In this document: piece by piece, positions 24,701 through 54,650 of the stretch
How the letters are laid out: each line of letters begins with the position of its first letter
Position numbering within the stretch: position 1 is the first letter of the stretch
Source: Patescibacteria group bacterium
Lineage (GTDB): Bacteria > Patescibacteriota > Minisyncoccia > UBA6257 > JACRHW01
Length of the DNA: 64,000 nucleotides
Direction: 5' to 3'
Assembly (NCBI GenBank): GCA_028865725.1
Contig: JAGWJP010000001.1
Location: 294,568 to 358,567 of the forward strand
Notes under the pieces: generated by a model
Told to the model about the DNA's origin: nothing
The model's input: only the letters and a program-made list of their open reading frames with translations
Database searches by the model: none
Program-made: the position numbers and the translations under genes

Positions 24701-27700
24701 ACAGTAAATCTTACTGCAAGTGGCGCAACAAATGGAACTTCAACGGTATATCTTTTGTCTCCTCAAACAGGTCCTATTTCGAGAGTGTCAACGGCATTTG
24801 TGGGGGCGAGCTCAACCGTTATCTTTTCTGGATTGCAGAGTGGAATGTACGCACTGATGACCGATCCTATTATTACGCTCACCGGAGGAACATTTATTGG
24901 CCAGTCAAATCCGACTCCTGTGAATGTCAATGGAAGCACATCATTTGCTCTTGCGCTTTCTCCTGCAGGTTCGCTTGCTTCAACGACGGTAAGCATTCAT
25001 GCCACAGGAGCAAAAAAGGTTTCTGTATTTGCAGGGGGTCCTAATGGTTATGTTGACACGCCGCTTACCACTTCAAACGGAACGACTACGGTAGCGATTT
25101 ATTATCCTGCAAACGGTGATTATACGGTAGGTGTTGGTCCGCAGATGAGTAAAACGTTCAACGGTCCTCCTCCTGCACCTGATTATGTGATGCCGCAGCC
25201 AGTTCAAGTTCATGTTGCTTCAAATCTTGCTTCACAAACGACACTGAGTTTCGATCTTGTTTCCGCAGGTCTTACGATCGCCGGTTCTGTCAAAGATGGT
25301 TCTGGAAAAGCAATTACAGGTGCAAACGTGTACGCGTATTCCCCGCAGGGAGGATCAGGGACTTTTGGTACCACAGCATCAGACGGTAGCTTTGCATTAA
25401 ATGTTGCCGCGGGAAGTTATGAAGTAGGCGCACGCGCTCCAGGGTTTCCTTCTGGCATTGATACGCCAGTAGTCGTAGATTCTAGTGGCAGCCTCTTTGT
25501 AAATGGCGCTGCAGCATCTTCTTCCTCGGTAACTGTTAAATTAAGCAAGGGCGGTGTGACCATAAGCGGTAAGGTAACAGATGGAACCAATCCTGTTCAA
25601 GGAGCACAAGTGTGGGCATATTGCGACTCGAGCGTAAGTAACAATGCTTGTTTTGGGCCAAATAGCAATGTTTCTGCACAAACGGATTCTTCCGGAGCCT
25701 TTACACTTTATGTCGGCAATGGAACATGGAAGATAGGATCATTTATTCCAGGATATGGCCAACAGCCCATTCTTACCCAGGTTATTTCTGGTTCAAATGT
25801 AACGCTTTCTGATATTAGGCCGTCAGCAACAGGAACATTTGCGACAGTAAGCGGTACGGTGTGTACGAACACCACATCTGATTGTACGAGCGGATCTCCT
25901 TCTGCGGTTTCTGGCGCAATGATAAGAATTCAAGGAACGGACGCAAGTGGAAATTTCTATTCTAATTCTGTAATTTCTGGGAGCGACGGATCATACTCGT
26001 TTGCATCAAGCGTTCCTTCAGGAGCTGGATCAAGCTATCGAGTGCTTGGCAATGTGGCCGGGCTTGGTGAAATTGCGCCAACAGCAAACTTTTCTGTAAC
26101 AGGAAATGTGAGCAATAAAGATCTTGTTTTGAAAGCGGGGCGCACTGTGAATCTCAATGTGAGCAACCCGCCTTCCACCTACGATATGTTCCTTAAATTC
26201 ACAAACACTACCTCTGGAGTAGCTAATTATCTTACGTTGCACAATAATGCTTCAGGAACAATATCGCTTCAGAATGGATCTACCTATGCTATTGATGCGC
26301 GCGCGCAAGGATTTTCTTTCCCTGTTTCTTTGATTACATTGACAGGGGGTACGGCAACCTATTCAACATCGACGGGGCAGCTTGCTCTTAACGGAGGCTC
26401 CTCGGATACCGTTACTCTTAATCTCGCCTTTCCTGCAGCAAATGTGGTAAGCGGTACGGTGAAAGATGGTTCTGGTACGTTATTATCGAATGCCTGGGTT
26501 GATTTTGCCGATCCAACACACGGATCTCACTTTGGAACGCAATCTAATGCAAGTGGCACCTATTCGCTTCCTATTCAGGATGGTTCGTATCAAGTTTCTG
26601 TATATGCGCCGGGATACTTGCCAAACCCAACATCGCTTTCTTTGGATGGAGGCACGATCACACTTGGAAATGCAACAACTTCAGCAAGTACGGTAAACCT
26701 TATCGCGAACAAGTCGAACCTTTTAATTGCGGGTACTATTACTATAGATGGTTCTCCCGCAGCGAATGCGCTGGTAAAAGGTACGCTTTTGGGTGGTAGT
26801 ACAAGTATTGTGACTGCAAACACTGACGGTACATATTCTTTGCCTGTATCGAATGGCAGCTGGACGGTTACTGCTTCTGCAAATGGATATCAAAATAAAG
26901 ATTATGCTTCAACAGTTACCGTGAACGGTTCTTCGGTATCAGGAGTCGATATCAATCTTACTTCTCTTGCTACTCTCGGTAATCCATCAACCCTTTCTAT
27001 CGTGCCTTCTCAAGGCGGAACGCTTCAAAATGCTTCAGGCACGTTGACGATCGCAGTTCCTGCAAATGCATTGAGTACTTCTGCAAACGCTGGTAAACTC
27101 GCAGCAACCGAAACGAGTAATGTGATCAATACTGCTTCTGCAAAAGTTTTTGGAAACGGTGTTGATATCAGCGCGCAAGATTCTTCTAATAATCCGCTTT
27201 CAAGTGGGTTTACCGATAATGTAGTAATTACGATGGATATAGCAAGCTCCTCATTTGCTGCAGATGCCCTTACAAGCACTAGTACGGCAAGCAAGATGGA
27301 ATTGGGATATTTCAAATCCTCACTGAATGACTGGGTCCCCGTTGAGACAACGCTTACGTATGAGGATGCAAATGGTGCTCCTGTAACTGCGGCGAGCGAT
27401 TTGAGCAACGTTGACCATATCAGCCTGTCGGTTCCTACAAAACACTTTACCGTGTTTGGCATAATCACTCCCACCGATGCGCTTGCGCCAAGTGCTCCTA
27501 CTAACGTTTCTGCGACTCAAAGCGGATCTTCTGCGGTGGTGACATGGACTGCACCGACTACGAATTCTGATGGAACTGCGCTTTCCGATTTGCAGGAATA
27601 TGAGATATATCGGGATACAAGCGCAAGCGGGAGTTTTACAACGCAAGTAAATTCAAGCCAAGTAACGGGGACAACATTTACCGATTCCACTGTTTCAGCA

Positions 27701-28234
27701 GGCACCACATATTACTATAAAGTTTCCGCAGCCGATACGAGTGGAAATGAATCTTCAAAGTCATCTGTTTCATCGGGGCTTGCTGTCGCTGCTCTTGTTT
27801 CCGGAGGAGGTTCCTACTCATCTGCTGCCTCTTCAGCAGCAAACCCTGTAGTTACCACTACAAACACAGAAACCTCAACGGTTGAAAATGCAACGCCAAC
27901 TTCTTCTCCCGTTTCTGCTTCTGTAAGTACGGTAACCACCCCAACATCTACGACAGCCCCCCAAGCAGTTTCTTCTACTGCACATGCAGCCGCAACACTT
28001 ACTCGATCGCTTTCTCTCGGCAGCAAAGACTCCGAAGTGACAACCCTTCAAAAACTTCTCGCATCCGATCCGTCACTTTATCCGGAAGGACTCATATCAG
28101 GCTACTTCGGCGCACTTACCAAGAAAGCAGTCATTCGATTCCAAGAAAAATATGGTATCGCGACTGATGCAGCAACAGCCGGACTTGTAGGACCAGAGAC
28201 ACGTGCGAAATTGATGGAGGTGTTAGGAAGATAG
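21725..28234 (+). CDS. giant (2169 aa) cell-surface protein with LTD, Ig-like, CarboxypepD_reg-like, FN3 and peptidoglycan-binding domains
   Basis: Signal/TM segment MRMKKINLFFAAVFIVSAASF. A lamin-tail-like domain spans roughly aa 120-270 (AIKIAAVRSGTTGNNLNEFIMLYNT...GFFLIASANGYG). Multiple Ig-like/Big repeats follow, then four or more CarboxypepD_reg-like repeats (for example GSVKDGSGKAITGANVYAY...SYEVGARAPGF). An FN3 domain follows (PSAPTNVSATQSGSSAVVTWTAP...YYYKVSAADTSGNES). The C-terminus has a PG_binding_1 domain (LSLGSKDSEVTTLQKLL...GYFGALTKKAVIRFQEKYGI). All minus-strand ORFs inside are judged spurious. Confidence 0.8.
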   Translation: MRMKKINLFFAAVFIVSAASFLYESHNVSAFTVAGAFLRDSQSFNVLFDADVASSTFSTSTLSLSTSTLQAVSTFPENTREIFGSVSGTLTTADTVTVSSTAHDTLGNANLASTTPFTFLPAIKIAAVRSGTTGNNLNEFIMLYNTMNQSWNASSALHLHVLNASGHDNVIPLTFATSTIPANGFFLIASANGYGGTISPDATYSSSTDILATSTTAIFINSTSTPTDASSIGSVIDKVEWGASAQIGSSVSFSFATTTASTSLPLDYTFVRKASSASTPVSMASGGSDSNKGNGYDTRDNAQDFVMLSGSLSPALKNSASPSEFASGGGVQDATVPIVMGSFPSGMNGEMVPTDLQFVGFGFNKSMDGSTITSSTVSLVQQGQATNMCSSVSYSNSFNTSGPPGQCTIPAGALIAGSTYVFTIKGSSSTPSVHDSSGNVLNQPSGQNGNANHDYQVIFTPTSGFTLTPQTPPSIIGSFPAPGANGIPTNISSISIGFSQAIDPASLSGVTLLRSGGSNVLNALTPKLSSDGKSATIPVSASPLLAGTTYTLTVPTTVRNSNNVNLPQTYTASFVTGASGGDMTGPLVLGHLPNIATGVPVNATDIHLSTDDALNPTTITSSTVQITDANGNHIPGTLTYDSLSQEIVFVADNVFQTNTLYTVTLNAASATPVIENVVGLPLQDSDGSSDNKYTFSFTTSASPDTTQPGLLVANANTFSLSLTFDEAVKQTEAENIANYALTSGGNPVTLSSFNGNTASYDLSTHTVTINNLALTAGASFSVTVSNVHDLSGNVIDPTKVSAGGTVLAPTLNGGIIGMGGGYIAPTNGLPTGFSSGSFGFVPQVGVHPMNTTAGFTSGYAVDLPISTQIPASGKIVLTFPSSFTLANAIADTFSPANNDINGPGTGTVTIASVVGDDTAHTVTVTLGGTGTQSNGGDTHDFLHFDLAQIVNPTVPNTADGYTIDIRTLNGSNSLESFTSMPFFITSAGSNSLTVNLTASGATNGTSTVYLLSPQTGPISRVSTAFVGASSTVIFSGLQSGMYALMTDPIITLTGGTFIGQSNPTPVNVNGSTSFALALSPAGSLASTTVSIHATGAKKVSVFAGGPNGYVDTPLTTSNGTTTVAIYYPANGDYTVGVGPQMSKTFNGPPPAPDYVMPQPVQVHVASNLASQTTLSFDLVSAGLTIAGSVKDGSGKAITGANVYAYSPQGGSGTFGTTASDGSFALNVAAGSYEVGARAPGFPSGIDTPVVVDSSGSLFVNGAAASSSSVTVKLSKGGVTISGKVTDGTNPVQGAQVWAYCDSSVSNNACFGPNSNVSAQTDSSGAFTLYVGNGTWKIGSFIPGYGQQPILTQVISGSNVTLSDIRPSATGTFATVSGTVCTNTTSDCTSGSPSAVSGAMIRIQGTDASGNFYSNSVISGSDGSYSFASSVPSGAGSSYRVLGNVAGLGEIAPTANFSVTGNVSNKDLVLKAGRTVNLNVSNPPSTYDMFLKFTNTTSGVANYLTLHNNASGTISLQNGSTYAIDARAQGFSFPVSLITLTGGTATYSTSTGQLALNGGSSDTVTLNLAFPAANVVSGTVKDGSGTLLSNAWVDFADPTHGSHFGTQSNASGTYSLPIQDGSYQVSVYAPGYLPNPTSLSLDGGTITLGNATTSASTVNLIANKSNLLIAGTITIDGSPAANALVKGTLLGGSTSIVTANTDGTYSLPVSNGSWTVTASANGYQNKDYASTVTVNGSSVSGVDINLTSLATLGNPSTLSIVPSQGGTLQNASGTLTIAVPANALSTSANAGKLAATETSNVINTASAKVFGNGVDISAQDSSNNPLSSGFTDNVVITMDIASSSFAADALTSTSTASKMELGYFKSSLNDWVPVETTLTYEDANGAPVTAASDLSNVDHISLSVPTKHFTVFGIITPTDALAPSAPTNVSATQSGSSAVVTWTAPTTNSDGTALSDLQEYEIYRDTSASGSFTTQVNSSQVTGTTFTDSTVSAGTTYYYKVSAADTSGNESSKSSVSSGLAVAALVSGGGSYSSAASSAANPVVTTTNTETSTVENATPTSSPVSASVSTVTTPTSTTAPQAVSSTAHAAATLTRSLSLGSKDSEVTTLQKLLASDPSLYPEGLISGYFGALTKKAVIRFQEKYGIATDAATAGLVGPETRAKLMEVLGR

Positions 28235-28845: not shown

Positions 28846-30384
28846 TTGGATACCATGTCTTCTTTTTCCGGGGAGTACCCTATTGGTTTTGAACAAGCAC
28901 TTGATGTGTTAGAAAACTCAAGCGAAGGTTTTGTGATTGCAGATGGATCACGCGCGCACACTATTCTTTATGTAAATCCAGCGTGGGAGCGTATTACCGG
29001 GTGGACTAAGGATGAGGTAATAGGAAAACTTTCTCCTCGTATTTTGAAATCAGGTAAACAAGATGCCGAGTTTTATGATCATATGTGGGGGACTATTCTT
29101 CAAGGTGATATTTTCACAAGCGAGATTGTGAACAAGCGCAAGGATGGAAACCTTTATGACGCCGAAATAAGCATTTTTCCTATACGCGGTACTGATAATA
29201 GGGTTTTTTACGCCGAAATAAGCCGCGACATTACAATCAAAAAAAAGCTTGAAGAAGATGCTAAAAATCGTGCGAGTTTACTTAAACTCGAGGTGGAATT
29301 ACGCACGAATGAGTTAAAAAATAGGATTTTGGAAGATGAAGCCATTCTCATGTCCCTTGGTGAAGGTCTTGTGGTAACCGATCAAAATGGTCTTATCACA
29401 CTTGTAAACAAGGCGTTCGAAGATCTTGTGGGGTGGACGAGTGAGGAGGCGGTGGGTAAAAATATTTTTGACGTGATTCCTGTGGAGGATGAAGAAGGGA
29501 ATGGAATTTCTACAAACGATCTCCCGGTATTTCGGGTGATATCTGGACAAGGTGCTCCGAGCATTCGCTCACGTTACTATTATGTGCGTAAAGATAAGAC
29601 TAAGTTTCCCACGGCAGTTGTAACTACCCTGATACGGGGGGGAGACATTGTAAAAGGTGTCGCAACTATTTTTCGCGATATTACGAACGAGTTGGCCTTG
29701 GAAAAAGCAAAAGATGAATTTGTTTCTATTACTTCTCATCAATTGCGTACCCCGCTTTCTGCGATTAAGTGGACACTTGAGCTTTTTTCAAAAGAAACAG
29801 ATCTATCTCCGAAAAACCAGGAGCGTGTTCGTGATTTGTATCGTTCCTGTGAGCAGTTGATCGATCTTGTGAACACCTTGTTGAACATTGCGCGCATTGA
29901 ATCAGGCAAGCTTGTGGCCGTCAAAAAGAAAGTTAATATCGTCAATCTCATTCACGAATCGCTTACACTCTACAAGCCTGCTGCAGACAAGAATGGTCAA
30001 AACGTTCTTTTCACCGCGCCCCCACATGTAGAGGACGTTATGTGCGATCCTATTCTTTTTACCCAAGCATTTAATAATTTGCTAAGCAATGCCATTAAAT
30101 ATTCTCCCCCGCATTTAACTATTAAAGTTATCTTGGAAAAACAAGAAGCACAGTATCGCATAATGGTACACAATGAAGGATCGACTATTCCGGAAACGGA
30201 TTATAGTAAAGTATTCTCTAAGTTTTATCGCAGTCCTGATGCGCGGTACCAAGAAACCGCAGGAAGCGGATTAGGTCTTTTTATTGCAAAGTCATCGGTA
30301 GAAAAAAACGGAGGAATCATAGGATTTGAATCTAATGTCAGCAAAGGAACTACCTTTTTCTTTACTATTCCCTCGCATGAATAA
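28846..30384 (+). CDS. cytoplasmic PAS-domain sensor histidine kinase
   Basis: 512 aa with two PAS folds. The HisKA H-box is ITSHQLRTPLSAI. The HATPase_c motifs include NLLSNAIKYS and GSGLGLFIAKS. No TM segments. It starts 2 nt after the receiver gene. Confidence 0.8.
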   Translation: MDTMSSFSGEYPIGFEQALDVLENSSEGFVIADGSRAHTILYVNPAWERITGWTKDEVIGKLSPRILKSGKQDAEFYDHMWGTILQGDIFTSEIVNKRKDGNLYDAEISIFPIRGTDNRVFYAEISRDITIKKKLEEDAKNRASLLKLEVELRTNELKNRILEDEAILMSLGEGLVVTDQNGLITLVNKAFEDLVGWTSEEAVGKNIFDVIPVEDEEGNGISTNDLPVFRVISGQGAPSIRSRYYYVRKDKTKFPTAVVTTLIRGGDIVKGVATIFRDITNELALEKAKDEFVSITSHQLRTPLSAIKWTLELFSKETDLSPKNQERVRDLYRSCEQLIDLVNTLLNIARIESGKLVAVKKKVNIVNLIHESLTLYKPAADKNGQNVLFTAPPHVEDVMCDPILFTQAFNNLLSNAIKYSPPHLTIKVILEKQEAQYRIMVHNEGSTIPETDYSKVFSKFYRSPDARYQETAGSGLGLFIAKSSVEKNGGIIGFESNVSKGTTFFFTIPSHE

Positions 30385-44184: not shown

Positions 44185-46158
44185 ATGTTTAATCTCATAT
44201 CTCATAATAGGCCCGCGGGTGATCAGCCTGATGCGATCAGGTCTCTTGTGCACGGACTTGAACAGGGGTTTGCGAAACAAACGCTTCTTGGCGTTACGGG
44301 ATCGGGGAAGACATTTACAGTCGCCAACGTCATCGCAAAGATGAATATCCCGACGCTTGTGATTGCTCACAATAAGACACTTGCGGCACAGCTTTGCAAT
44401 GAGTTCCGGGAGCTGTTTCCGAAGAATTCGGTACACTATTTTGTTTCGTATTACGATTATTATCAGCCGGAAGCGTATATTCCTTCCTCCGATACCTATA
44501 TTGGAAAAGAAGCGATGGTGAATGAAGAAATCGATAAGCTCCGCCACGCAGCTACTACCGCGCTCCTGACGCGGCGCGATGTGATCATTGTAGCCTCAGT
44601 ATCGTGTATTTACGGATTAGGTGCGCCCGAAGCGTACCGCGAAAATATCTTGCATGTGAAGGTGGGGGATATGATCGAGCGCGCAGCATTTATGAAAAAG
44701 CTCGTCACGCTTCAATTTACTCGTACGAACGCAGACCTTACTCGTGCGACCTTTCGTGTGCGTGGAGACAATTGGGAGATTATGCCTCCAGACCGCGAAA
44801 TCATTTATTCATTCCATTGTGCAGAAGGCGTGGTACGAGAGATTTATGAAGTGAATCCTGTTGAAGGGTTTGTCCCAGGCGTTACCGCGACTGTTCCCGA
44901 GGTTGTTTTTGCTCCGGCTAAACATTTTATTACCAGTGTTTCAGATCGCACACGCGCGATGAAAGCGATTGAAGCAGAGTTAAAAGAGCGACTTCGATAT
45001 TTTGAGCAGAACCAAAAATATCTTGAGGCGGAACGTCTTGAGCGGCGCACAAAAGCAGATCTGGCAATGATGCGCGAAGTAGGGTATTGCAATGGCATCG
45101 AAAATTATTCGCGCCATCTTTCAGGGCGCGCGCCGGGAGATCCCCCCGATACGCTGCTTGATTATTTTCCCGAAGACTTTTTAACGGTGATCGATGAGTC
45201 TCATGTGACGGTGCCTCAGATTGAGGGAATGCAGGCGGGAGATGCTTCGCGTAAAAAGACCTTAGTAGATTTTGGATTTCGTCTTCCTTCTGCAAAAGAT
45301 AATCGTCCGCTTACGTTTCAGGAGTTTTCTGCGCGCGTGCATCGCGTGATGTATACGTCCGCCACGCCAGGCTCCTACGAACTTACTCACAGCGATCAGG
45401 TAGTTGAACAAATCATTCGTCCTACCGGGCTTGTGGATCCCGAAATTACCATTTGTCCTGTACAAGGCCAGGTGAGCGATCTTATTCCTCGTATTGAGGC
45501 GCGCGTGAAGGTTCATGAGCGCGTACTGGTTACGACGCTTACCAAAAAAATGGCGGAAGACCTCAGTGCGTTTCTTGAGGAAAAGGGAATTAAGGTATCC
45601 TACCTTCATAGTGATGTAAAAACACTAGATCGGGTACGCATTTTGACGGGGCTTCGCAAAGGAGAGTTTGATGTGCTGGTGGGGGTGAACCTTCTGCGTG
45701 AGGGGCTTGATTTACCCGAGGTGTCTCTTGTTGCGATTCTTGATGCCGACAAGGAAGGATTTTTGCGCAGTGAGACGTCACTCGTTCAAACAATCGGCCG
45801 TGCGGCGCGGAATGTACGAGGAGAGGTGGTAATGTACGCTGATGTTATGACCGGTTCCATTACGCGGGCGGTACAAGAAACAAATCGTAGACGTTCCCTT
45901 CAACTTGCCTACAACGAGAAATACCACATCATACCAAAAACGGTGCTAAAAGAGATTACCGATATTCTTCCTACCGGGCGTATTTTGCAACTTGAAATGA
46001 AACCTGTTCCTACGTCTAAAAAACAGCGTTCCGAATTTATTAAAGAAAAAGAACATGAAATGCGTGAGGCGGCAGGGCGCCTTGATTTCGAACTCGCTGC
46101 CATTTTACGTGACGAACTTAAGGAGCTTCAAAAAGATCAAAAGAAAAAGAGAAACTAG
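44185..46158 (+). CDS. uvrB: excinuclease ABC subunit B
   Basis: 657 aa. Walker A GVTGSGKTFT, the beta-hairpin region, helicase motifs and the C-terminal UVR domain (LDFELAAILRDELKELQ). Confidence 0.95.
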   Translation: MFNLISHNRPAGDQPDAIRSLVHGLEQGFAKQTLLGVTGSGKTFTVANVIAKMNIPTLVIAHNKTLAAQLCNEFRELFPKNSVHYFVSYYDYYQPEAYIPSSDTYIGKEAMVNEEIDKLRHAATTALLTRRDVIIVASVSCIYGLGAPEAYRENILHVKVGDMIERAAFMKKLVTLQFTRTNADLTRATFRVRGDNWEIMPPDREIIYSFHCAEGVVREIYEVNPVEGFVPGVTATVPEVVFAPAKHFITSVSDRTRAMKAIEAELKERLRYFEQNQKYLEAERLERRTKADLAMMREVGYCNGIENYSRHLSGRAPGDPPDTLLDYFPEDFLTVIDESHVTVPQIEGMQAGDASRKKTLVDFGFRLPSAKDNRPLTFQEFSARVHRVMYTSATPGSYELTHSDQVVEQIIRPTGLVDPEITICPVQGQVSDLIPRIEARVKVHERVLVTTLTKKMAEDLSAFLEEKGIKVSYLHSDVKTLDRVRILTGLRKGEFDVLVGVNLLREGLDLPEVSLVAILDADKEGFLRSETSLVQTIGRAARNVRGEVVMYADVMTGSITRAVQETNRRRSLQLAYNEKYHIIPKTVLKEITDILPTGRILQLEMKPVPTSKKQRSEFIKEKEHEMREAAGRLDFELAAILRDELKELQKDQKKKRN

Positions 46159-46185
46159 AATTGAAAATCTCGAATCTAGAAAGAA
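46150..46185. repeat. AATCTAGAA-motif pair at the uvrB 3' end
   Basis: GAAACTAGAATTGAAAATCTCGAATCTAGAAAG carries the same CTAGAA core as the 37055-37110 and 60733-60766 clusters. Confidence 0.35.
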
Positions 46186-46254
46186 GGAGTGAGCGAAACG
46201 ACTCGAGGAGCTACCCTTAAAAGAAAAAACCGCATTGGGCGGTTTGCGATTTTA

Positions 46255-46503
46255 TTATTGTATAAATTTTGGCCTTTTGATGCCGGAAAATAGACGGAAG
46301 AGGAAAGATCTGTAGTCTTTGATCAGGAGATCAGTTTGACAGTGTTTATTTGGACAAACTACATATATATAATTTGCTGACGCCCATCCGTTTAAATCAT
46401 ATCGGATATCGGGTTCCTTGTATTCGAATACACAACCACATGCAGTGCATTTCAATTTTCCTTCTTTGCGATAGTGTTGTTTTCCTTCCACAACGATACG
46501 CAT
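46255..46503 (-). CDS. small zinc-ribbon protein
   Basis: 82 aa from Met 46503. It has the Cys pairs CTACGC and CPNKHC. It follows the upstream minus-strand gene by 4 nt. Confidence 0.4.
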   Translation of the reverse strand: MRIVVEGKQHYRKEGKLKCTACGCVFEYKEPDIRYDLNGWASANYIYVVCPNKHCQTDLLIKDYRSFLFRLFSGIKRPKFIQ

Positions 46504-46507
46504 ATTG

Positions 46508-46819
46508 TCAGTCTCCTTTCGGACGTAGTCTAGGATGGAGAGCGCCCATACCATATTGAGGCGGATCATCCTTTTGCACATCAGCTACATATTCTTTGGG
46601 AAGCGTGTGTTCAAGATAATGTTTTATCGCTTCCAATTCTTGTTTGCTTAACCACAATAGTATTCTAAATTGCATTTGATCTCGATAGAGTGCCCCATAA
46701 AGCTGTTCAAGCGTCTTATAGCCACGCTCAGCAAGGCGTGTTTTCTGTTTTTTATTAAGAATGGTGTCGGGTACGCATTCCACAGGAGTTCCTTCAGGTT
46801 GGAGCTTGAAATCCGGCAT
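46508..46819 (-). CDS. hypothetical protein (possible helix-hairpin-helix-like segment)
   Basis: About 104 aa from Met 46819, divergent from uvrA. KTRLAERGYKTLEQL is a candidate HhH segment. No firm domain recognised. Confidence 0.3.
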   Translation of the reverse strand: MPDFKLQPEGTPVECVPDTILNKKQKTRLAERGYKTLEQLYGALYRDQMQFRILLWLSKQELEAIKHYLEHTLPKEYVADVQKDDPPQYGMGALHPRLRPKGD

Positions 46820-46973
46820 AAATGATCCTCCTGTTATCAAATTCCTACGAAGAGCATAGCACATGTATTTTAGTTTTAGCAAGGTTGCTTTTCTACAATT
46901 TTTTGTATATTCTTTGAAAAAAGGAAATGATAGGGCATCCCCACAACATATTTGCGGGGCGCTTTCCGTTTTT

Positions 46974-49586
46974 ATGAAAGACAAAATCAAAATCAAAGGG
47001 GCGCGTGAGCACAACTTAAAAAATGTGCATTTGGAGTTGCCGCGTGGAAAGATGATTGTTTTTACCGGGCCCTCGGGATCCGGAAAATCTTCACTTGCAT
47101 TCGATACGATTTTTGCGGAAGGGCAGAGACGCTATATTGAATCATTGTCAGCTTATGCGCGACAGTTTTTAGGTCGCCTTGATAAGCCGGATGTGGATGA
47201 TATCGAGGGGCTTTCTCCCGCTATTTCCATTGATCAGAAAAGCCACTCTTCAAATCCGCGCTCGACGGTTGCGACGATCACGGAAATTTATGATTATTTG
47301 CGTGTATTATTCGCGCGCATCGGCACACCCTACTGTCCCGAGTGTGGAAAAGAGATTCGCAAAATGACGCGCGAGCAGATCGTGGATGTGGCGATTCAGT
47401 TTTCGGATAAGCATCGGATGAAGGATGGTGATCATTTTGTTCCGCGCGCAAAACGCGATGATAATTTTATTACTGTTTTTGCTCCTGTGGTGAGAGGAAG
47501 AAAAGGAGAGTATTATCAGATGCTCTATGATTTCTTGAATGCAGGGTTTAGCGAGGTGCGTATTGATGGCAACGTATATTCATTGCGGGAACGCATTCAG
47601 CTGAGTCGTTATAACGCGCACACCATTGAACTTGTGATTGATCGTATTCCTCTTACGCTTGATTTTGCGGACAAAGAGAATCGCCTTCGCATATCAGAGG
47701 CGGTGGAGTCAGGGATAAAATATGGAAATGATGTGGTGACGATTGCTGCAGCTTCGGATGAGATTACCCTTTCTACCAAGTTTTCCTGTCCCGAGGATGG
47801 ATTCGCGTTTCCTGAAATAGAACCGCGCTTGTTTTCATTTAATAGTCCTTATGGTGCCTGTTCCGAGTGCCATGGTATTGGTACAGAGCATCTATGGTCT
47901 GACGAGCCGTGCAAGATGTGCGAGGGGAAGCGACTTAAAAAGGAAAGTTTGAGTGTGTTGATAAATAACATTCATATTGCGCGTGTTACGCAGTTTTCCG
48001 TGGATGAGGCGTATCAGTTTTTTGACACTGTGGAGTCGACGCTTCTTGAACACAATGATACACGCCTGGGGGTTGCGGATGTGCCTCTCCGCGAGATTAA
48101 AAATCGGCTTCGCTTTTTGCAGAATGTAGGGCTTGAATACCTGACGCTTGAACGAAAAGCGGGAACGCTTTCAGGAGGAGAGGCGCAGCGTATTCGGTTG
48201 GCGTCACAGATCGGATCCCAGCTGACCGGCACGCTTTATGTTCTCGATGAGCCGACGATTGGTCTTCATCAACGTGATAATGCAAAATTAATTGCTACCC
48301 TTCACAAGCTTCGCGATCTTGGCAATACGATTATCGTTGTTGAGCATGATGAAGATACGATTCGTGCTTCAGACTATCTTGTGGATTTTGGCATAGGGGC
48401 GGGCGTTCACGGGGGCAGTGTAATGGCAGAGGGAGAGCTTTCGGATCTTTTGAAACACAAGAAAACCCAGTCACTGACGCTGGATTATTTGCGCGGCGTG
48501 AAGACGATTGCGGTGCCCGGGAAACGCCGGACGATAAAATCAAAACGTGGGTGGATTGATGAATCGCTCAAAATTCGCGGCGCCCACATTCATAATCTCA
48601 AAAACGTTGATGTCGATATTCCGCTTCGCAAACTAACCTGTGTAACTGGGGTTTCTGGTTCTGGAAAATCGACACTTATTTATGATGTGTTGCACCGATA
48701 TGTGTCCGACACGTTTAATGGTGTGTTTCGTCCGCGTCTGGGTGCAAGGCCAAAAAAATTCGAATGGTGCGATACGGTGCTCGGGCTTGAATATGTTAAT
48801 CGGGTGCTGACTATTGACCAATCTCCCATTGGCAGGACTCCTCGATCAAATCCGGCGACCTATGTGGGTGCGTGGACGCATATTCGCGATCTGTTTACTT
48901 CCACAGAGGACGCGCGCGTACGCGGATACAAGCCTGGACGCTTTAGTTTTAACGTGCGTGGCGGACGCTGTGAACATTGCGAGGGTCATGGTGTGATTGC
49001 GATCGAGATGCATTTTTTGCCTACTGTCTATGTACCCTGCGATGTGTGCAAGGGAAAGCGGTTTGATCGCGAGACGCTTGAAGTAGAGTACAGGCAGAAA
49101 AATATTTATGAGGTTCTTCAGATGACCGTAGAGGAAGCACTTATGTTTTTTGAAGATATTCCTTGGCTTGACGCAAAGCTTCGTATTTTGAATGAGGTCG
49201 GCTTAGGGTACCTTACACTTGGACAATCAGCCACCACACTTTCGGGAGGAGAAGCGCAACGCATCAAGTTGGCTGCAGAACTTGGAAAACATGATACACA
49301 CAGAACTCTTTATCTTCTTGATGAGCCCACAACGGGATTGCATTTTTCTGATATTGAGAAACTTCTCGACGTGCTGCAACGGTTGGTCGACAGGGGAAAT
49401 ACTGTTGTCGTAATCGAACACAATCTCGATGTCATAAAGACCGCTGATTGGATTATCGATCTTGGTCCCGAAGGGGGCGATCGTGGTGGAAAGATTGTTG
49501 CGACCGGTACCCCAGAAGAAATTGTGCGTAATGCACTCAGTATTACCGGGCGTTATCTTAAGGATGTTTTGAAAAAAATCGCGTAG
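46974..49586 (+). CDS. uvrA: excinuclease ABC subunit A
   Basis: 870 aa from Met 46974 (MKDKIKIKGAREHNLKNV). Two ABC ATPase modules: GPSGSGKSSLAFDT and GVSGSGKSTL Walker A, with LSGGEAQR signatures. Zinc-finger Cys clusters: CPECGK and CSECHG...CKMCEG. Confidence 0.95.
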   Translation: MKDKIKIKGAREHNLKNVHLELPRGKMIVFTGPSGSGKSSLAFDTIFAEGQRRYIESLSAYARQFLGRLDKPDVDDIEGLSPAISIDQKSHSSNPRSTVATITEIYDYLRVLFARIGTPYCPECGKEIRKMTREQIVDVAIQFSDKHRMKDGDHFVPRAKRDDNFITVFAPVVRGRKGEYYQMLYDFLNAGFSEVRIDGNVYSLRERIQLSRYNAHTIELVIDRIPLTLDFADKENRLRISEAVESGIKYGNDVVTIAAASDEITLSTKFSCPEDGFAFPEIEPRLFSFNSPYGACSECHGIGTEHLWSDEPCKMCEGKRLKKESLSVLINNIHIARVTQFSVDEAYQFFDTVESTLLEHNDTRLGVADVPLREIKNRLRFLQNVGLEYLTLERKAGTLSGGEAQRIRLASQIGSQLTGTLYVLDEPTIGLHQRDNAKLIATLHKLRDLGNTIIVVEHDEDTIRASDYLVDFGIGAGVHGGSVMAEGELSDLLKHKKTQSLTLDYLRGVKTIAVPGKRRTIKSKRGWIDESLKIRGAHIHNLKNVDVDIPLRKLTCVTGVSGSGKSTLIYDVLHRYVSDTFNGVFRPRLGARPKKFEWCDTVLGLEYVNRVLTIDQSPIGRTPRSNPATYVGAWTHIRDLFTSTEDARVRGYKPGRFSFNVRGGRCEHCEGHGVIAIEMHFLPTVYVPCDVCKGKRFDRETLEVEYRQKNIYEVLQMTVEEALMFFEDIPWLDAKLRILNEVGLGYLTLGQSATTLSGGEAQRIKLAAELGKHDTHRTLYLLDEPTTGLHFSDIEKLLDVLQRLVDRGNTVVVIEHNLDVIKTADWIIDLGPEGGDRGGKIVATGTPEEIVRNALSITGRYLKDVLKKIA

Positions 49587-49651
49587 GATATTGCCTGTTT
49601 TTAATTTTTTTGATAAAATGAAACGAATCTCATGGGAGGAGAGTTGGAGTA

Positions 49652-49984
49652 ATGTCTCGTGCAGTTATTGTCCCTGAGAATTATTACATTAAACCAGGCG
49701 ATATTGATACAAGTAAGCCATTTTTGGGGATTTTTGGAAAACTGGGCGCTGAAGTATTTGGACATATGTTTGTGCAAATGTGTCAGCATAATGGATTTTG
49801 GAATGCGTTTACCCGCGATGAGCTTGCCGTATGTTGCACACAAGCGGGTGCAAATATGTTTTTTCTCGATTGGTTTATTGTTCGGGATCTCCTCGTATGC
49901 GATATGCATGGAAAATTCTGTGCCACTCTGGAGTTTGTGAACAGTTGTCCGCGCGTAACTCCGCCTGCCACACCAGTACAATAA
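49652..49984 (+). CDS. hypothetical Cys-rich protein
   Basis: 110 aa. GGGAGGAG lies 9 nt upstream. 7 Cys. No domain recognised. Confidence 0.4.
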   Translation: MSRAVIVPENYYIKPGDIDTSKPFLGIFGKLGAEVFGHMFVQMCQHNGFWNAFTRDELAVCCTQAGANMFFLDWFIVRDLLVCDMHGKFCATLEFVNSCPRVTPPATPVQ

Positions 49985-50035
49985 ACAAACAGCAAGACCT
50001 TGATTAAGGTCTTCTTTTTTTGAAAGAATAGAATT

Positions 50036-50860
50036 ATGACATCTTTATCACGAATCCGACAATTTAGGAGAACGGTTCGCGCATATTATCGTAAGCACAA
50101 ACGTGCTTTTCCGTGGCGCGAAACTGCGGATCCCTATCATATTTTAGTGTCTGAAATTATGCTGCAACAGACCCAAGTTGGAAGAGTCTGTGAAAAGTAT
50201 CCAGAGTTTGTTGCCGCGTTTCCTGAGGTTGCCTCACTTGCCGAAGCCCCTTTGTCCTCTGTGCTTCGCGTGTGGAAGGGCATGGGGTATAATCGTCGCG
50301 CGCTTGCCCTCAAGTCTATCGCGTACATCGTATGTCAGAAATATGGCGGGGTTATTCCGCGCGATCCTGAGATTCTTCGTACTTTGCCAGGTATTGGCAA
50401 AGGTACCGCAGGTTCGATTCCCGCGTTTGCGTACAATATACCCACGGTATTTATTGAAACGAATATACGCCGCGTATTTATTTATCACTTTTTTCCTCAC
50501 GCAACACAAGTGCGTGATGAGACTATTTTGAAATTAGTCGCAGAAACTCTTGATCGGAAAAATCCGCGCGCCTGGTACTCCGCGCTTATGGATTATGGAT
50601 CCTATCTTGGTAGTACGCTTCGCGGCAATAACCCGAATATAAAAAGTAAACATTATCGCAAGCAATCCGCATTTGAAGGATCGAACAGAAAAATACGCGG
50701 CATAATTATCGCGTTGCTTTCGAACGGACAAAAACAATCAATGCATGCTGTTATTCGTGCTGCGGGAAACGATTCCGGACGTGTGAGGCACAATCTTTCT
50801 GTCCTCGTGAAAGAAGGATTCCTTGAAAAACAACGTGGAGGGTACAGGATGAAATCCTGA
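50036..50860 (+). CDS. HhH-GPD DNA glycosylase (MutY/Nth-like) without [4Fe-4S] Cys cluster, C-terminal winged-helix-like tail
   Basis: FPWRETADPYHILVSEIMLQQTQV is the MutY/Nth N-terminal helix. LPGIGKGTAGSIPAFAY is HhH-GPD. No C-x6-C-x2-C-x5-C motif anywhere in the ORF. No NUDIX domain. Confidence 0.65.
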   Translation: MTSLSRIRQFRRTVRAYYRKHKRAFPWRETADPYHILVSEIMLQQTQVGRVCEKYPEFVAAFPEVASLAEAPLSSVLRVWKGMGYNRRALALKSIAYIVCQKYGGVIPRDPEILRTLPGIGKGTAGSIPAFAYNIPTVFIETNIRRVFIYHFFPHATQVRDETILKLVAETLDRKNPRAWYSALMDYGSYLGSTLRGNNPNIKSKHYRKQSAFEGSNRKIRGIIIALLSNGQKQSMHAVIRAAGNDSGRVRHNLSVLVKEGFLEKQRGGYRMKS

Positions 50861-50875
50861 AGTTTAAGAAGAATA

Positions 50876-50905
50876 AAACTGCTCGGGAGACGAGCAGTTT
50901 TTAAA
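50876..50905 (+). terminator. rho-independent terminator
   Basis: AACTGCTCG-GGAGA-CGAGCAGTT followed by TTTTAAATT. Confidence 0.5.
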
Positions 50906-51245
50906 TTGTTGTAGAGATAGACTATCGGCGGCAGATTTTTGTGGCGTCCCTTTGGTTTCCAGGTAGCGGATATGGTTTTTGCACCGCAAGCGTGCGTACA
51001 TGCCTCTCATTATAATAATAGTTATGTATTGTGAAAGTTCATACGTACGACGTACATCATGATGATGGGGTGTGTGTCGAAAAACTTATATTTCGCGTTT
51101 TCCACAATGCCTGAACGATCATTCTTGGCCTTTTGACTATCTCTTATTTTCGATGATTCTCAAAGTTCTTCTTACAGTATACTGGCGTGCGAAGAAGCAT
51201 TCAATATATTGATTGTGGATATCTTATGTGGCATTATGAGTATCT

Positions 51246-52430
51246 ATGTTATATTCAAAATTTCCCTCTACGCCCGGCGTCTACCGCATGAAAGATCATG
51301 CAGGAAAGACATTATATATAGGAAAAGCTGCAAATCTGAAGCGGCGTGTTTCTAGTTATTTTACTCGTACTCTCGATCCGCGTATTGCCACAATGGTGTC
51401 GCGTGTTCATGCAATTGAATATATCAAAACGAAAAGCGTTCTTGAGGCCTTGATACTCGAAGCAGAACTTATTAAAAAAGAACAGCCCCCCTTTAACGTG
51501 AAGGAGAGGGATGATAAAAGTTTTTTGTATATCGAAATTATGCGTGAAGCATTTCCCCGCGTTCTTCTTACGCGCGGGAGATCTGCGCGCGCAGGAAAAC
51601 GATTTGGACCTTTTGTTTCTGCGCATGACGCGCGCGAGGCATTGCGTATTCTTCGCCGTATTTTTCCATGGAGTGTTCATACACCGGAAAAAGTAGGCAC
51701 GTACAAAAAACCATGTTTCGATTATCAAATTGGATTATGTCCGGGAACATGCATAGGAGCAATTTCTAAGACGGAATATCGCAAGAATATTCATCGTCTT
51801 GCCGATTTTCTAAGCGGCAGGAGAGAACGGGTTATTCTTTCGCTGGAACGTGATATGCACCGTGCGAGTACGACGCTCGCGTTTGAACACGCAGAAAGCG
51901 TGAAGCGTCAACTTCACGCTCTTTACCATATTCAAGATACTGCACTTATTTCAGAAAACGTGATACGCGGTGCGCACCCCTCTTCACAAGACGTACGTAT
52001 CGAAGGGTATGATATCTCCAATATTTCTGGGGTCTCTGCGGTGGGATCGATGGTGGTATTTGTGAACGGCATGCCCGATAAAAAAGAGTATAAGAAATTT
52101 AAGATTCATACTATTACCGGTGCAAACGATGTGGGTATGTTAGAAGAAGTTTTGCGTCGTAGATTTCATCGTGCATGGAAATTACCTAATCTGATTCTTG
52201 TGGATGGCGGTACACCGCAGGTCAATCGCGCAAAACTTGTATTGCGCGATGCCGGTTTAGGAATTCCCGTGGTCGGTATTGCAAAAGGACCTGCACGCGA
52301 CAAAAATGAATTTGTGGGGGATACCACATCAAAGGATGAGGAGCAAATCTTGATTCGCGTGCGCGATGAAGCACATCGTTTCGCGGTAAGTTATCACAAA
52401 GTCGTGCGCGGAACAACATTCTTCCAATAA
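51246..52430 (+). CDS. uvrC: excinuclease ABC subunit C, short form lacking C-terminal (HhH)2 domain
   Basis: 394 aa. N-terminal GIY-YIG (PGVYRMKDHAGKTLYIGKAANLKRRVSSYF). Cys-rich UvrB-interaction region (CFDYQIGLCPGTC). C-terminal endonuclease/RNase-H-like domain (IEGYDISNISG...LILVDGG). Confidence 0.8.
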   Translation: MLYSKFPSTPGVYRMKDHAGKTLYIGKAANLKRRVSSYFTRTLDPRIATMVSRVHAIEYIKTKSVLEALILEAELIKKEQPPFNVKERDDKSFLYIEIMREAFPRVLLTRGRSARAGKRFGPFVSAHDAREALRILRRIFPWSVHTPEKVGTYKKPCFDYQIGLCPGTCIGAISKTEYRKNIHRLADFLSGRRERVILSLERDMHRASTTLAFEHAESVKRQLHALYHIQDTALISENVIRGAHPSSQDVRIEGYDISNISGVSAVGSMVVFVNGMPDKKEYKKFKIHTITGANDVGMLEEVLRRRFHRAWKLPNLILVDGGTPQVNRAKLVLRDAGLGIPVVGIAKGPARDKNEFVGDTTSKDEEQILIRVRDEAHRFAVSYHKVVRGTTFFQ

Positions 52431-52621: not shown

Positions 52622-52744
52622 TTCACTTTTGCCTCCTTGACTCATATGCTGAATTAAGTATATTCGTCTTTTGGTGGGTAGGCAACCTATTTTTGTTTTG
52701 GTGGAGAGCGCATTATAATGGAAATAAGGCTCGTTTAATATGGT

Positions 52745-53938
52745 ATGACTGTTTCTTTTCTTGCGCCTCTCGTGCAGGCAATGTCGAATATGCTGGTTTC
52801 CATGAACGCGAAAAATGCGGTAGATTTTTGTATCGTGGCCTCTCTTGTATATTTGGTGCTCGTTTTGTTTCGTAGATCAGGTTCGTATGTGATGCTGCAA
52901 GGCGTGCTTTTTCTTTTTCTTCTTTATGCATGCGCCGCCTATTTTCACCTTTATCTTACAAGTTTGTTATTCGGATATTTTTTCACGTTCTTTATCGTCG
53001 TATTTGTAATTATTTTTCAGCGTGAGTTGCGGACGTTTTTTGAGTGGCTTCCTATGATTGGACGTATGAGGGGATTACGCAGAAGCCTGAGCGCAACAGA
53101 CGTTCTTGTTGGAATGGTACGAAGCGCGGTAGACACGCTCGCAAAAAATAAAACCGGAGCGCTTATTGTGTTTCCCGGGTTTCAGCCAGTAGACCGTTTT
53201 TTGGAAAAAGGAACTCCATTAAATGGCGATGTGTCTACAACATTGTTGCTCAGTATTTTTGATACTTCTTCTCCCGGACATGACGGCGCAGTGGTGATAC
53301 GGGGAAATAAGATCTCTCGTTTTGGTGTTCACCTTCCTCTTGCGGAGCGAGAGTCTGAACAGTTGCGGGGGGCGGGAACACGCCACCGAGCGGCTCTTGG
53401 TCTTGTCGAGCGCACCGATGCGCTCGTGCTTGTCGTTTCTGAAGAACGGGGGACTATTTCTCTTGCACAAAACGGAACGATAAAAACTGTGGCAGATTCA
53501 TCCGTATGCGCAGCGCATCTTCATTCCTTTCTTGATCAATTTTCTGCAGAGACAGAACGCGGTTTTTTAAAAAAGGTTTTGTTCTCCTATGTGCCTGAAA
53601 AAATTCTTGCTCTTCTAATCACTACCTTTCTTTGGTTTGTATTTGTAGTGCAAGGCGGAGTTATTCATAAAGAGCTTCTTGTACCTGTCGAATTTAAGTT
53701 TCTTGGTCCCAATCTTGCTGTAGAGAGTGTGCGTCCGACTGAGGTGGGAGTGAGTCTTAGTGGAAAAGCTTTAGATTTCAATTTGCTTAATCCTGAAGAT
53801 GTACAGGTGGTTGTCAATGCGACTGGTTTTAAAACAGGGTCTTACACCGTTACGCTTACACCCAAAAACGTAGAGGTGACAGGAAATTTTTCGGTAGATA
53901 CGGTTACTCCTGATCATGTTACGTTCCGCGTGCAATAA
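52745..53938 (+). CDS. cdaA: diadenylate cyclase CdaA fused to YbbR-like (CdaR-type) domain
   Basis: Three N-terminal TM helices. The DAC domain carries DGA (SPGHDGAVVIRG) and RHR (GTRHRAALGL) motifs and VVSEERGTISLA. After an extra TM (ILALLITTFLWFVFVV), a ~110-aa beta-rich YbbR-like module follows (VPVEFKFLGPNLAVESV...VTLTPKNVEVTGNFSVDTV). Confidence 0.65.
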   Translation: MTVSFLAPLVQAMSNMLVSMNAKNAVDFCIVASLVYLVLVLFRRSGSYVMLQGVLFLFLLYACAAYFHLYLTSLLFGYFFTFFIVVFVIIFQRELRTFFEWLPMIGRMRGLRRSLSATDVLVGMVRSAVDTLAKNKTGALIVFPGFQPVDRFLEKGTPLNGDVSTTLLLSIFDTSSPGHDGAVVIRGNKISRFGVHLPLAERESEQLRGAGTRHRAALGLVERTDALVLVVSEERGTISLAQNGTIKTVADSSVCAAHLHSFLDQFSAETERGFLKKVLFSYVPEKILALLITTFLWFVFVVQGGVIHKELLVPVEFKFLGPNLAVESVRPTEVGVSLSGKALDFNLLNPEDVQVVVNATGFKTGSYTVTLTPKNVEVTGNFSVDTVTPDHVTFRVQ

Positions 53939-54110
53939 ATGATAGAGTCGTCCTTTGTGCTATGGCGCACTCTGCATAGAGTTTTTGTGCTGGAGGATTC
54001 CACCTCCACTTAACGCGAAGTAATATTTGAGTAATATACATGAAAGATTGACAGAAGGAACCTGATCTAATAAGGTGGATGTAGGTCTTTTGCAAGAAGG
54101 GAATCCCTCC

Positions 54111-54506
54111 ATGAAGTCATTAGAGATTGATGTAGGAAGTCGTTCCTATCGCTGGCTTCGGTTTGTGTATGGCACCTTGCGTGGCATACCATTTGACCAT
54201 CCTCGGGATGTATGCAGTTACTTTTGGGGCATTGTGTGGAGTCCGGTGGCTGCTCTTGTTTCTCCTTGGGCGTTGTGTTTCTATTTTATCTGTTGCCTAG
54301 GTTTACTGATGAGCATGCAGGTGCATAAGGTGGGTCTGCTTTTTTATGCAAAAATTGTAGGAATTGTGTTGGGGTGTATGTTGTCGTTGATGGTCCTTGT
54401 TCTCGCGTTCACTGCTTTGTGTGGTGTGCTCAAGCCATATTGGGATTCATTGAAAAAGCGGCACTGTGCTCTTATCACCTATACGGATAAAAAGAATTCT
54501 CTATAG
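54111..54506 (+). CDS. hypothetical membrane protein
   Basis: About 131 aa with 3 TM helices. No domain recognised. Confidence 0.35.
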   Translation: MKSLEIDVGSRSYRWLRFVYGTLRGIPFDHPRDVCSYFWGIVWSPVAALVSPWALCFYFICCLGLLMSMQVHKVGLLFYAKIVGIVLGCMLSLMVLVLAFTALCGVLKPYWDSLKKRHCALITYTDKKNSL

Positions 54507-54650
54507 AGACAGGAAGGAGACAGCGAATAATTTATGATTTCGATCCTGTACGCGTATCTGTGTGCGGGGTCTTTTCTTTTCAAATCCTAAAAAATATGAT
54601 ATTTTTAGTGCGTTCTATCAATGTTGTTTACTAAAATTCATAAGCTTTCT

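Follow-up and report, generated by a model that had tools for sequence, protein, structure and literature searches.

A CdaA-type diadenylate cyclase joined on one chain to a single CdaR-type YbbR domain in a Patescibacteria genome

We analyzed a 64,000-nt stretch of a Patescibacteria (candidate phyla radiation, CPR) genome, here called the window, and in particular the gene at 52745..53938 on the forward strand, which encodes a diadenylate cyclase of the CdaA type that continues beyond its catalytic DAC domain through a fourth transmembrane (TM) helix, TM4, into a single YbbR domain. In Firmicutes, the genes for the cyclase CdaA and for the YbbR-domain protein CdaR are separate and adjacent. 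An initial annotation of the window had described the gene as a fusion of the two, and the open reading frame (ORF) on which that description was based is a single, intact and complete frame that starts with ATG and encodes 397 residues followed by a stop codon. The protein is already deposited at NCBI as MDE1970312.1, with the name "diadenylate cyclase" and the source Patescibacteria group bacterium. Family-level comparisons were based on an alignment of 32 homologs including the window protein, to which the 31 others align end to end at 39-56% identity.

The N-terminal part of the protein has the organization originally proposed for it, with three TM helices followed by a DAC domain that carries DGA and RHR motifs. 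Residues 16-94 (52790..53026, forward strand) form a CdaA_N membrane domain containing the three TM helices (Pfam PF19293, 26.1 bits against a cutoff of 23.8), and this Pfam family was matched by all 32 homologs. The DAC catalytic domain, which is predicted to be cytoplasmic, spans residues 127-245 (53123..53479, forward strand) and was identified with a score of 129 bits (Pfam PF02457, E 8.7e-38, cutoff 27). Within it, on the same strand, nt 53282-53290 encode D180-G181-A182 of the DGA motif and nt 53381-53389 encode R213-H214-R215 of the RHR motif. D180, G181, R213 and H214 are invariant in the alignment, and A182 and R215 are conserved in at least 90% of the homologs. Based on these intact catalytic motifs, the window protein would be expected to synthesize cyclic di-AMP (c-di-AMP). 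The solved chains closest to the cyclase part were CdaA structures (9g69, 6hvl and 4rv7; phmmer E 3.5e-32 to 1e-23), and among the NCBIfam families the CdaA model TIGR00159 scored far ahead of those for CdaS (122.8), CdaM (97) and DisA (44.7). Chain C of PDB entry 9g69, a 292-residue "Diadenylate cyclase", matched residues 25-246 with the TM region included; it seems to be a full-length CdaA structure and usable for modelling how TM4 docks.

Hydropathy analysis identified four segments of TM grade at approximately residues 24-42, 49-67, 73-91 and 289-307, with peaks of 2.28, 2.06, 2.64 and 2.15, and the last of these corresponds to the extra helix past the DAC domain that had been noted at the outset. 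TM4 (residues ~288-306; 53606..53662, forward strand) corresponds in position to the N-terminal membrane anchor of CdaR; it is uncharged in all 32 homologs, with a mean hydropathy of 1.98. Between the DAC domain and TM4 there is a long connector helix (residues ~252-282; 53498..53590, forward strand), which is predicted to be cytoplasmic on the basis of the AlphaFold model and the charge pattern. In the full-length AlphaFold model (mean predicted local distance difference test score, pLDDT, of 81.3) the helix at residues 252-280 runs almost directly into the TM4 helix at residues 283-302, and the first β-strand of the YbbR domain begins at residue 306. K286, W297, G305 and G340 are invariant across the 32 homologs.

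Family-wide, the loop between TM1 and TM2 carries a mean of 2.3 Lys and Arg residues and zero acidic residues, and the flank that follows TM3 a mean of 4.3 Lys and Arg. The flank preceding TM4 has 3.9 Lys and Arg versus 2.0 Asp and Glu (net +1.9), and the flank following TM4 is acidic (net -0.7). The TM segments and this positive-inside pattern together predict a topology with the N-terminus outside, the DAC domain inside and the YbbR module extracytoplasmic. The module would lie outside because the DAC domain sits between TM3 and TM4 and because the flanks of TM4 obey the positive-inside rule. The claim that the fusion puts the YbbR module on the opposite face of the membrane is thus appropriate relative to the DAC domain, and that face is the same extracytoplasmic side on which the YbbR domains of canonical CdaR reside (PMC10636490).

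The C-terminal module (residues ~306-397; 53660..53935, forward strand) is a single YbbR domain by Pfam, profile and fold comparisons, with the Pfam match covering residues 313-393. As first described, the module is rich in β-structure, being all-β with a pLDDT of ~90 in the full-length model, and its size is ~92 residues instead of the ~110 initially estimated. When modelled alone with AlphaFold2, it was again all-β, with a pLDDT of 95.1 and a predicted TM-score (pTM) of 0.80. On the window sequence by itself the Pfam YbbR match (PF07949, cutoff 22.3 bits) is marginal at 21.7 bits, although it is close to full length (model positions 1-78 of 81), and it is at the family level that the YbbR character of the module is decisive. 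YbbR was matched at E<0.01 by 18 of the 32 homologs (best E 4.8e-7), and homologs with the same architecture exceeded the Pfam cutoff with scores of 35, 37.8, 24.6, 22.9 and 23.4 bits. Against the full set of PDB sequences (E<=10), a profile built from the module matched only four, every one of them a YbbR domain: Listeria CdaR Lmo2119 (5hqh) was the best (E 2.3e-4), and the others, 2l3u (E 1.3e-3), 3lyw and 2kpu, all come from one D. hafniense YbbR protein, of which they represent domains IV and I. In a Foldseek search of the PDB, ranks 1-7 were all YbbR structures with a probability of 1.00 and TM-scores of up to 0.77, followed by ribosomal L25/TL5. The YbbR fold is related to the C-terminal domain of L25/TL5.

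The same profile was searched against 1.84 billion representative proteins and produced 3,207 matches at E<=1e-3. Among the best 150 of these matches, 78 have a DAC domain on the same chain and approximately 19 are stand-alone proteins (E<=1e-14) in which 2-5 YbbR repeats follow a TM helix at the N-terminus, with Pfam YbbR scores of 55-115 bits. In these stand-alone CdaR-like proteins the first YbbR domain starts within a few residues of the anchor, a spacing that is mirrored by TM4 and the YbbR domain of the window protein. Together, these data indicate that the module is a genuine CdaR-type YbbR domain and that its sub-threshold score as a single sequence is due to divergence, not to another fold. 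The proposed resemblance to YbbR is therefore confirmed by Pfam at the family level, by the profile search and by Foldseek, and the plural "repeats" of that proposal is replaced by one domain. The window protein stops at the last β-strand of the module and has no disordered tail. In 172 fused homologs, the C-terminal tail was five residues or fewer in 83 and 6-15 residues in 59 (15 or fewer in 142 of 172), and only a few ended in a short tail enriched in Pro, Glu and Lys.

The fusion of these parts is genuine and widespread. A contig of 260 kb in another metagenome-assembled genome (MAG), GCA_028868355.1, encodes an identical 397-residue protein, as does the independent Logan assembly SRR32006850. 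Database searching identified more than 100 clusters of proteins of 381-446 residues with 39-56% identity to the query over 89-100% of its length, in addition to five forms of ~560 residues. Most of these clusters are from CPR lineages (such as Giovannonibacteria, Niyogibacteria and Paceibacterota), and several already have a precomputed YbbR call. Across the 32 aligned sequences the linker, TM4 and module align continuously and without gaps, an agreement well outside what chance would produce, and the fusion is also carried by cultured isolates and by a CPR genome that was closed at 651 kb (CP066687.1). With the same protein recovered from two independent datasets and the architecture conserved across phyla, neither a frameshift nor a misassembly can account for it.

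To determine how far the fusion extends, we scanned one genome per species (GTDB) and kept the 80 best loci, counting a fusion where the tblastn match reached query residue 375 or beyond, that is, where the YbbR module was covered. By this measure 64 of the 80 loci encode the fusion, and the implication of the initial annotation that such a protein is unusual does not hold, as the fusion is common outside the Firmicutes. The loci include Saccharibacteria, Phycisphaeraceae (Planctomycetota), Myxococcota, Ignavibacteria, Bacteroidota, Acidobacteriota, Bacteriovoracaceae and, above all, Desulfobacterota (Desulfobacterales, Geobacteraceae and Desulfuromonadaceae). The fusions in Desulfobacterota and the other phyla have the same order of CdaA_N, DAC, TM helix and YbbR, with 27-39% identity over nearly the full length. 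Two cultured examples, Citrifermentans bremense R1 (NZ_AUGE01000014.1) and Desulfobacter latus AcRS2 (NZ_JACADJ010000058.1), have CdaA_N, DAC and YbbR domains by Pfam, with YbbR scores of 22.9 and 49.2 bits, respectively. A full-text search, outside which dedicated surveys of DAC architectures fall, returned no relevant literature on c-di-AMP and YbbR in Deltaproteobacteria or on c-di-AMP in Patescibacteria. The compact CdaA-YbbR architecture is widespread and catalogued but apparently uncharacterized.

Longer versions of the protein were also observed. The D. latus fusion (locus L071, 3004-4458; 484 residues) has a second YbbR-like domain after the first, and it is this second domain that scores 49.2 bits. 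A second YbbR-like domain is likewise present in other members of a subclass of ~480-515 residues (D. latus, P0254, P0230, P0261 and others). The ~560-residue CPR variants (P0031, P0043, P0079, P0109 and P0114; at locus L006, 1958-3646) have the same core preceded by an N-terminal extension of ~170 residues, which has no Pfam match and contains additional hydrophobic segments. We had considered additional YbbR repeats as the cause of the ~560-residue length, and this was ruled out by the N-terminal position of the extra sequence. Clustering at 90% identity places the 397-residue protein under a 56-residue representative (P0122) together with further members of 54-56 residues, a grouping that is probably a clustering artifact arising from a short common fragment.

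The window protein was also compared with the characterized systems of Firmicutes. The CdaA (DacA/YbbP) proteins of L. monocytogenes, B. subtilis and S. aureus (6hvl, 4rv7, 6huw, 6gyw and the apparently full-length 9g69) likewise have three N-terminal TM helices, followed by a DAC domain in the cytoplasm that carries the DGA and RHR motifs. However, the canonical chain stops ~25-30 residues past the DAC domain, whereas the window protein adds the connector helix, TM4 and the extracytoplasmic YbbR domain. CdaR proteins (B. subtilis YbbR, Lmo2119 with structure 5hqh, and S. pneumoniae SP_1560 with structure 4qdy) consist of a TM anchor followed by extracytoplasmic YbbR domains, an order repeated by TM4 and YbbR in the window protein, and the module matched CdaR proteins themselves best, both in sequence and in structure. 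CdaR differs in being a separate polypeptide with 3-4 YbbR domains, while the window protein has one such domain attached covalently to the C-terminus of the cyclase. Fusions that combine the cyclase and the YbbR regulator on one chain have been reported in streptococci (UniProt A5LQF8, E1M7C3 and V8IIN0; PMC10243994). Going by the description in that review, those are "large fusion proteins" found in some strains only, in contrast to the family described here, which is compact, has one YbbR domain and is fixed across whole phyla.

Canonical cdaA is part of a cdaA-cdaR-glmM operon, and the window gene lies outside such an operon. Upstream of it, at 44185-52430, are uvrB, uvrA, a gene for an HhH-GPD glycosylase and a short uvrC, and downstream are an ORF for a 143-residue membrane protein, then ychF and tgt. 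Neither cdaR nor glmM is adjacent to the fusion gene. A local hidden Markov model search of the six-frame translation found no second YbbR module in the 396 stop-to-stop ORFs of the window, and Pfam identified no phosphoglucomutase-type (GlmM) protein among the 20 large ORFs scanned. Related loci, which were retrieved with the alignment of full-length proteins as query after a single-protein query gave no relatives, were similar in this respect, as an adjacent cdaR or glmM was absent from all eight and their gene neighborhood was not conserved. The search for GlmM and cdaR covered the window and these eight loci, and glmM possibly resides elsewhere in the genome, beyond the 64 kb.

A weak promoter-like site (TTGACT, a 16-nt spacer and TATATT; 10 of 12 matches) is located at 52637..52664 on the forward strand, ~80 nt upstream of the ATG. 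The hydrophobic 143-residue ORF (54075-54506, forward strand), which has no Pfam match, begins 136 nt past the 3' end of the fusion gene, and a terminator-like hairpin with a 13-bp stem and a T-run (54542-54571, forward strand) comes after it. Based on the promoter-like site and the hairpin, the fusion gene and the 143-residue ORF possibly form a two-gene transcription unit, although the numbers of promoter and terminator sites in the window did not exceed the shuffled expectation. The 143-residue ORF is also found 3' of the fusion gene in an independent contig (L002). We considered it as a conserved partner of the cyclase and rejected this, as it has no Pfam match and no comparable small ORF with a shared family annotation comes after the fusion gene in the seven more distant loci. 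No Rfam family matched the window at gathering thresholds, including those for tRNAs, rRNAs and riboswitches, and thus no c-di-AMP riboswitch of the ydaO/kimA type was identified in the 64 kb.

DNA-repair genes recur beside the CdaA-YbbR gene. In addition to the uvr genes and glycosylase gene of the window, a UvrD-type helicase is directly downstream of the fusion gene at locus L004, a 1000-residue UvrD/PDDEXK (AddA-like) protein is directly downstream at L007 and L008, with RecQ upstream at L008, and Fpg and RuvA are within 4 kb at L009. No such neighbors were present at L003, L005 and L006, and the association may be a product of chance or of synteny in small genomes. The UvrC homolog of the window (51246-52430, forward strand; 394 residues) has GIY-YIG and UvrC RNase H-like endonuclease domains and apparently lacks the C-terminal HhH region. 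Canonical UvrC is much longer, at ~600 residues. Farther away, there is an ORF of 2169 residues (21725-28234, forward strand) that is adjoined by a histidine kinase with two PAS domains (28846-30384, forward strand), and the context is otherwise that of a small CPR genome.

From these features, we consider it likely that the product of the window gene is a CdaA diadenylate cyclase of a single-chain receptor type in which TM4 and the YbbR domain are the in-cis counterparts of the anchor and YbbR domain of CdaR. Published work on the two-protein system supports this analogy. CdaR/YbbR is an interaction partner of the CdaA TM region (PMC6368335), the TM helix of CdaR contacts the membrane domain of CdaA (PMC6368335, PMC10243994) and the YbbR domains of CdaR face outward (PMC10636490, PMC8316131). 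CdaR modulates CdaA (PMC10636490, PMC10117814) and in several species affects how much c-di-AMP is present (PMC9259658, PMC10117814). In a 2023 review the CdaA-CdaR fusions of some streptococci were used as an argument for contact through the TM regions (PMC10243994).

If the window protein works in a similar manner, TM1-3 would form the usual CdaA membrane domain with the DAC domain in the cytoplasm, and the C-terminal helix of the DAC domain would continue into TM4, returning the chain to the outside so that the YbbR domain is displayed immediately after the membrane. We speculate that TM4 packs against TM1-3 in place of the CdaR anchor and that the outward-facing YbbR domain reports the state of the envelope or cell wall. 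An envelope cue may then alter helix packing or oligomerization by way of the continuous helix at residues 252-302, and this in turn may set whether the DAC domains form the head-to-head dimers needed for c-di-AMP synthesis. The enzymatic activity, the contact between TM4 and TM1-3, any regulation together with its sign, and the cue that may be sensed are the conjectural elements of this proposal.

Four observations weigh against this assignment. The TIGR00159 score of the window protein, 181.3 bits, is below the equivalog cutoff of 188.8, and its Pfam YbbR match (E 2.6e-4) is 0.6 bits under the cutoff for that family. Third, according to a citing preprint, the CdaR of B. subtilis senses peptidoglycan status via a disordered region outside the cell (Brogan et al. 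2025, cited in bioRxiv 10.64898/2026.09.06.749708), and the window protein has no counterpart of this functionally important region. In the absence of a disordered region, the canonical sensing mechanism of CdaR may therefore not apply. Fourth, the sign of any regulation is unpredictable because CdaR does not act on CdaA in the same way in every species (PMC10117814); activation has been reported in some settings and inhibition in others (PMC10117814, PMC9259658). With regard to sensing, either the folded YbbR domain itself is the sensor here or the module has a more structural part to play. A bolder proposal, in which the compact fusion (one TM helix, one YbbR domain, no tail and no linked glmM) is the predominant and possibly ancestral form of coupling between CdaA and the envelope outside Firmicutes, with the folded YbbR domain as sensor, is one that we regard as possible but doubtful.

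The main surviving alternative is that the YbbR module is passive, serving as a spacer, as a handle for oligomerization or localization, or as a tether to the cell wall, with c-di-AMP controlled elsewhere, such as by substrate supply, by phosphodiesterases or by GlmM encoded at another locus. The presence of only one YbbR domain and the missing tail are consistent with this, given that the disordered region is the part of B. subtilis CdaR reported as the sensor in the preprint cited above. In addition, there is no known ligand for any YbbR domain (PMC10636490), and in L. lactis, whose cdaR is a pseudogene, CdaR had no influence on the synthesis of c-di-AMP, while its effects vary from species to species (PMC10117814). 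Arguments against a passive role are the strong conservation of TM4 and YbbR across phyla, including the four invariant residues, the rigid-looking continuous helix between the DAC domain and TM4, which is what would be expected of a signaling link, and the shift in c-di-AMP levels that stand-alone CdaR causes in several species (PMC9259658, PMC10117814). On balance we consider a passive module unlikely.

A second alternative, which we consider very improbable, is that the module is a different small β domain (an RNA-binding domain like that of L25/TL5, an Ig-like domain or a carboxypeptidase-regulatory-like domain), in which case TM4 might not span the membrane and the module might be cytoplasmic. 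The sub-threshold YbbR score of the single sequence, the weak Pfam matches to CarboxypepD_reg (E 0.06) and Big_3 (E 0.07) and the appearance of L25 proteins in fold searches could each be read in this way. The exclusively YbbR matches of the module profile in the PDB, the placement of L25/TL5 after seven YbbR structures in the Foldseek ranking and the uncharged TM4 with positive-inside flanks all argue for a YbbR domain on the far side of the membrane.

Finally, although a single indel could fuse the adjacent cdaA and cdaR genes of Firmicutes, and the streptococcal fusions (PMC10243994) could be of that kind, we see next to no chance that a frameshift, misassembly or read-through joined a ~270-residue cdaA to a truncated downstream cdaR here, given the identical protein in the MAG contig and the independent Logan assembly, the architecture in more than 100 clusters, in the closed CP066687.1 genome and in cultured isolates, and the gap-free linker and TM4 of 32 sequences.

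The fusion gene is a useful but ordinary variant that would not surprise a specialist. The architecture is abundant in public data, NCBI already had the protein under the name diadenylate cyclase and the literature mentions fusions, so that the existing picture is refined and not overturned. To our knowledge, second-messenger signaling in CPR bacteria is essentially unstudied, and the loci described here indicate that many lineages other than Firmicutes, including CPR bacteria and Desulfobacterota, run CdaA without the context of a cdaR-glmM operon. The role of YbbR domains, and how CdaR controls the essential cyclase CdaA, is an unresolved question in the field, as both activation and inhibition have been reported. 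With regard to that question, a natural fusion is Rosetta-stone evidence for the membrane parts of CdaA and CdaR acting as one unit, and it makes their proximity permanent and their stoichiometry 1:1. Structural and biochemical studies could become simpler with the tail-less form, which, with its one domain, amounts to a minimal construct. If the folded YbbR domain is indeed the sensor, the protein would represent a minimal single-chain system for determining what YbbR senses and how c-di-AMP synthesis is controlled across the membrane.

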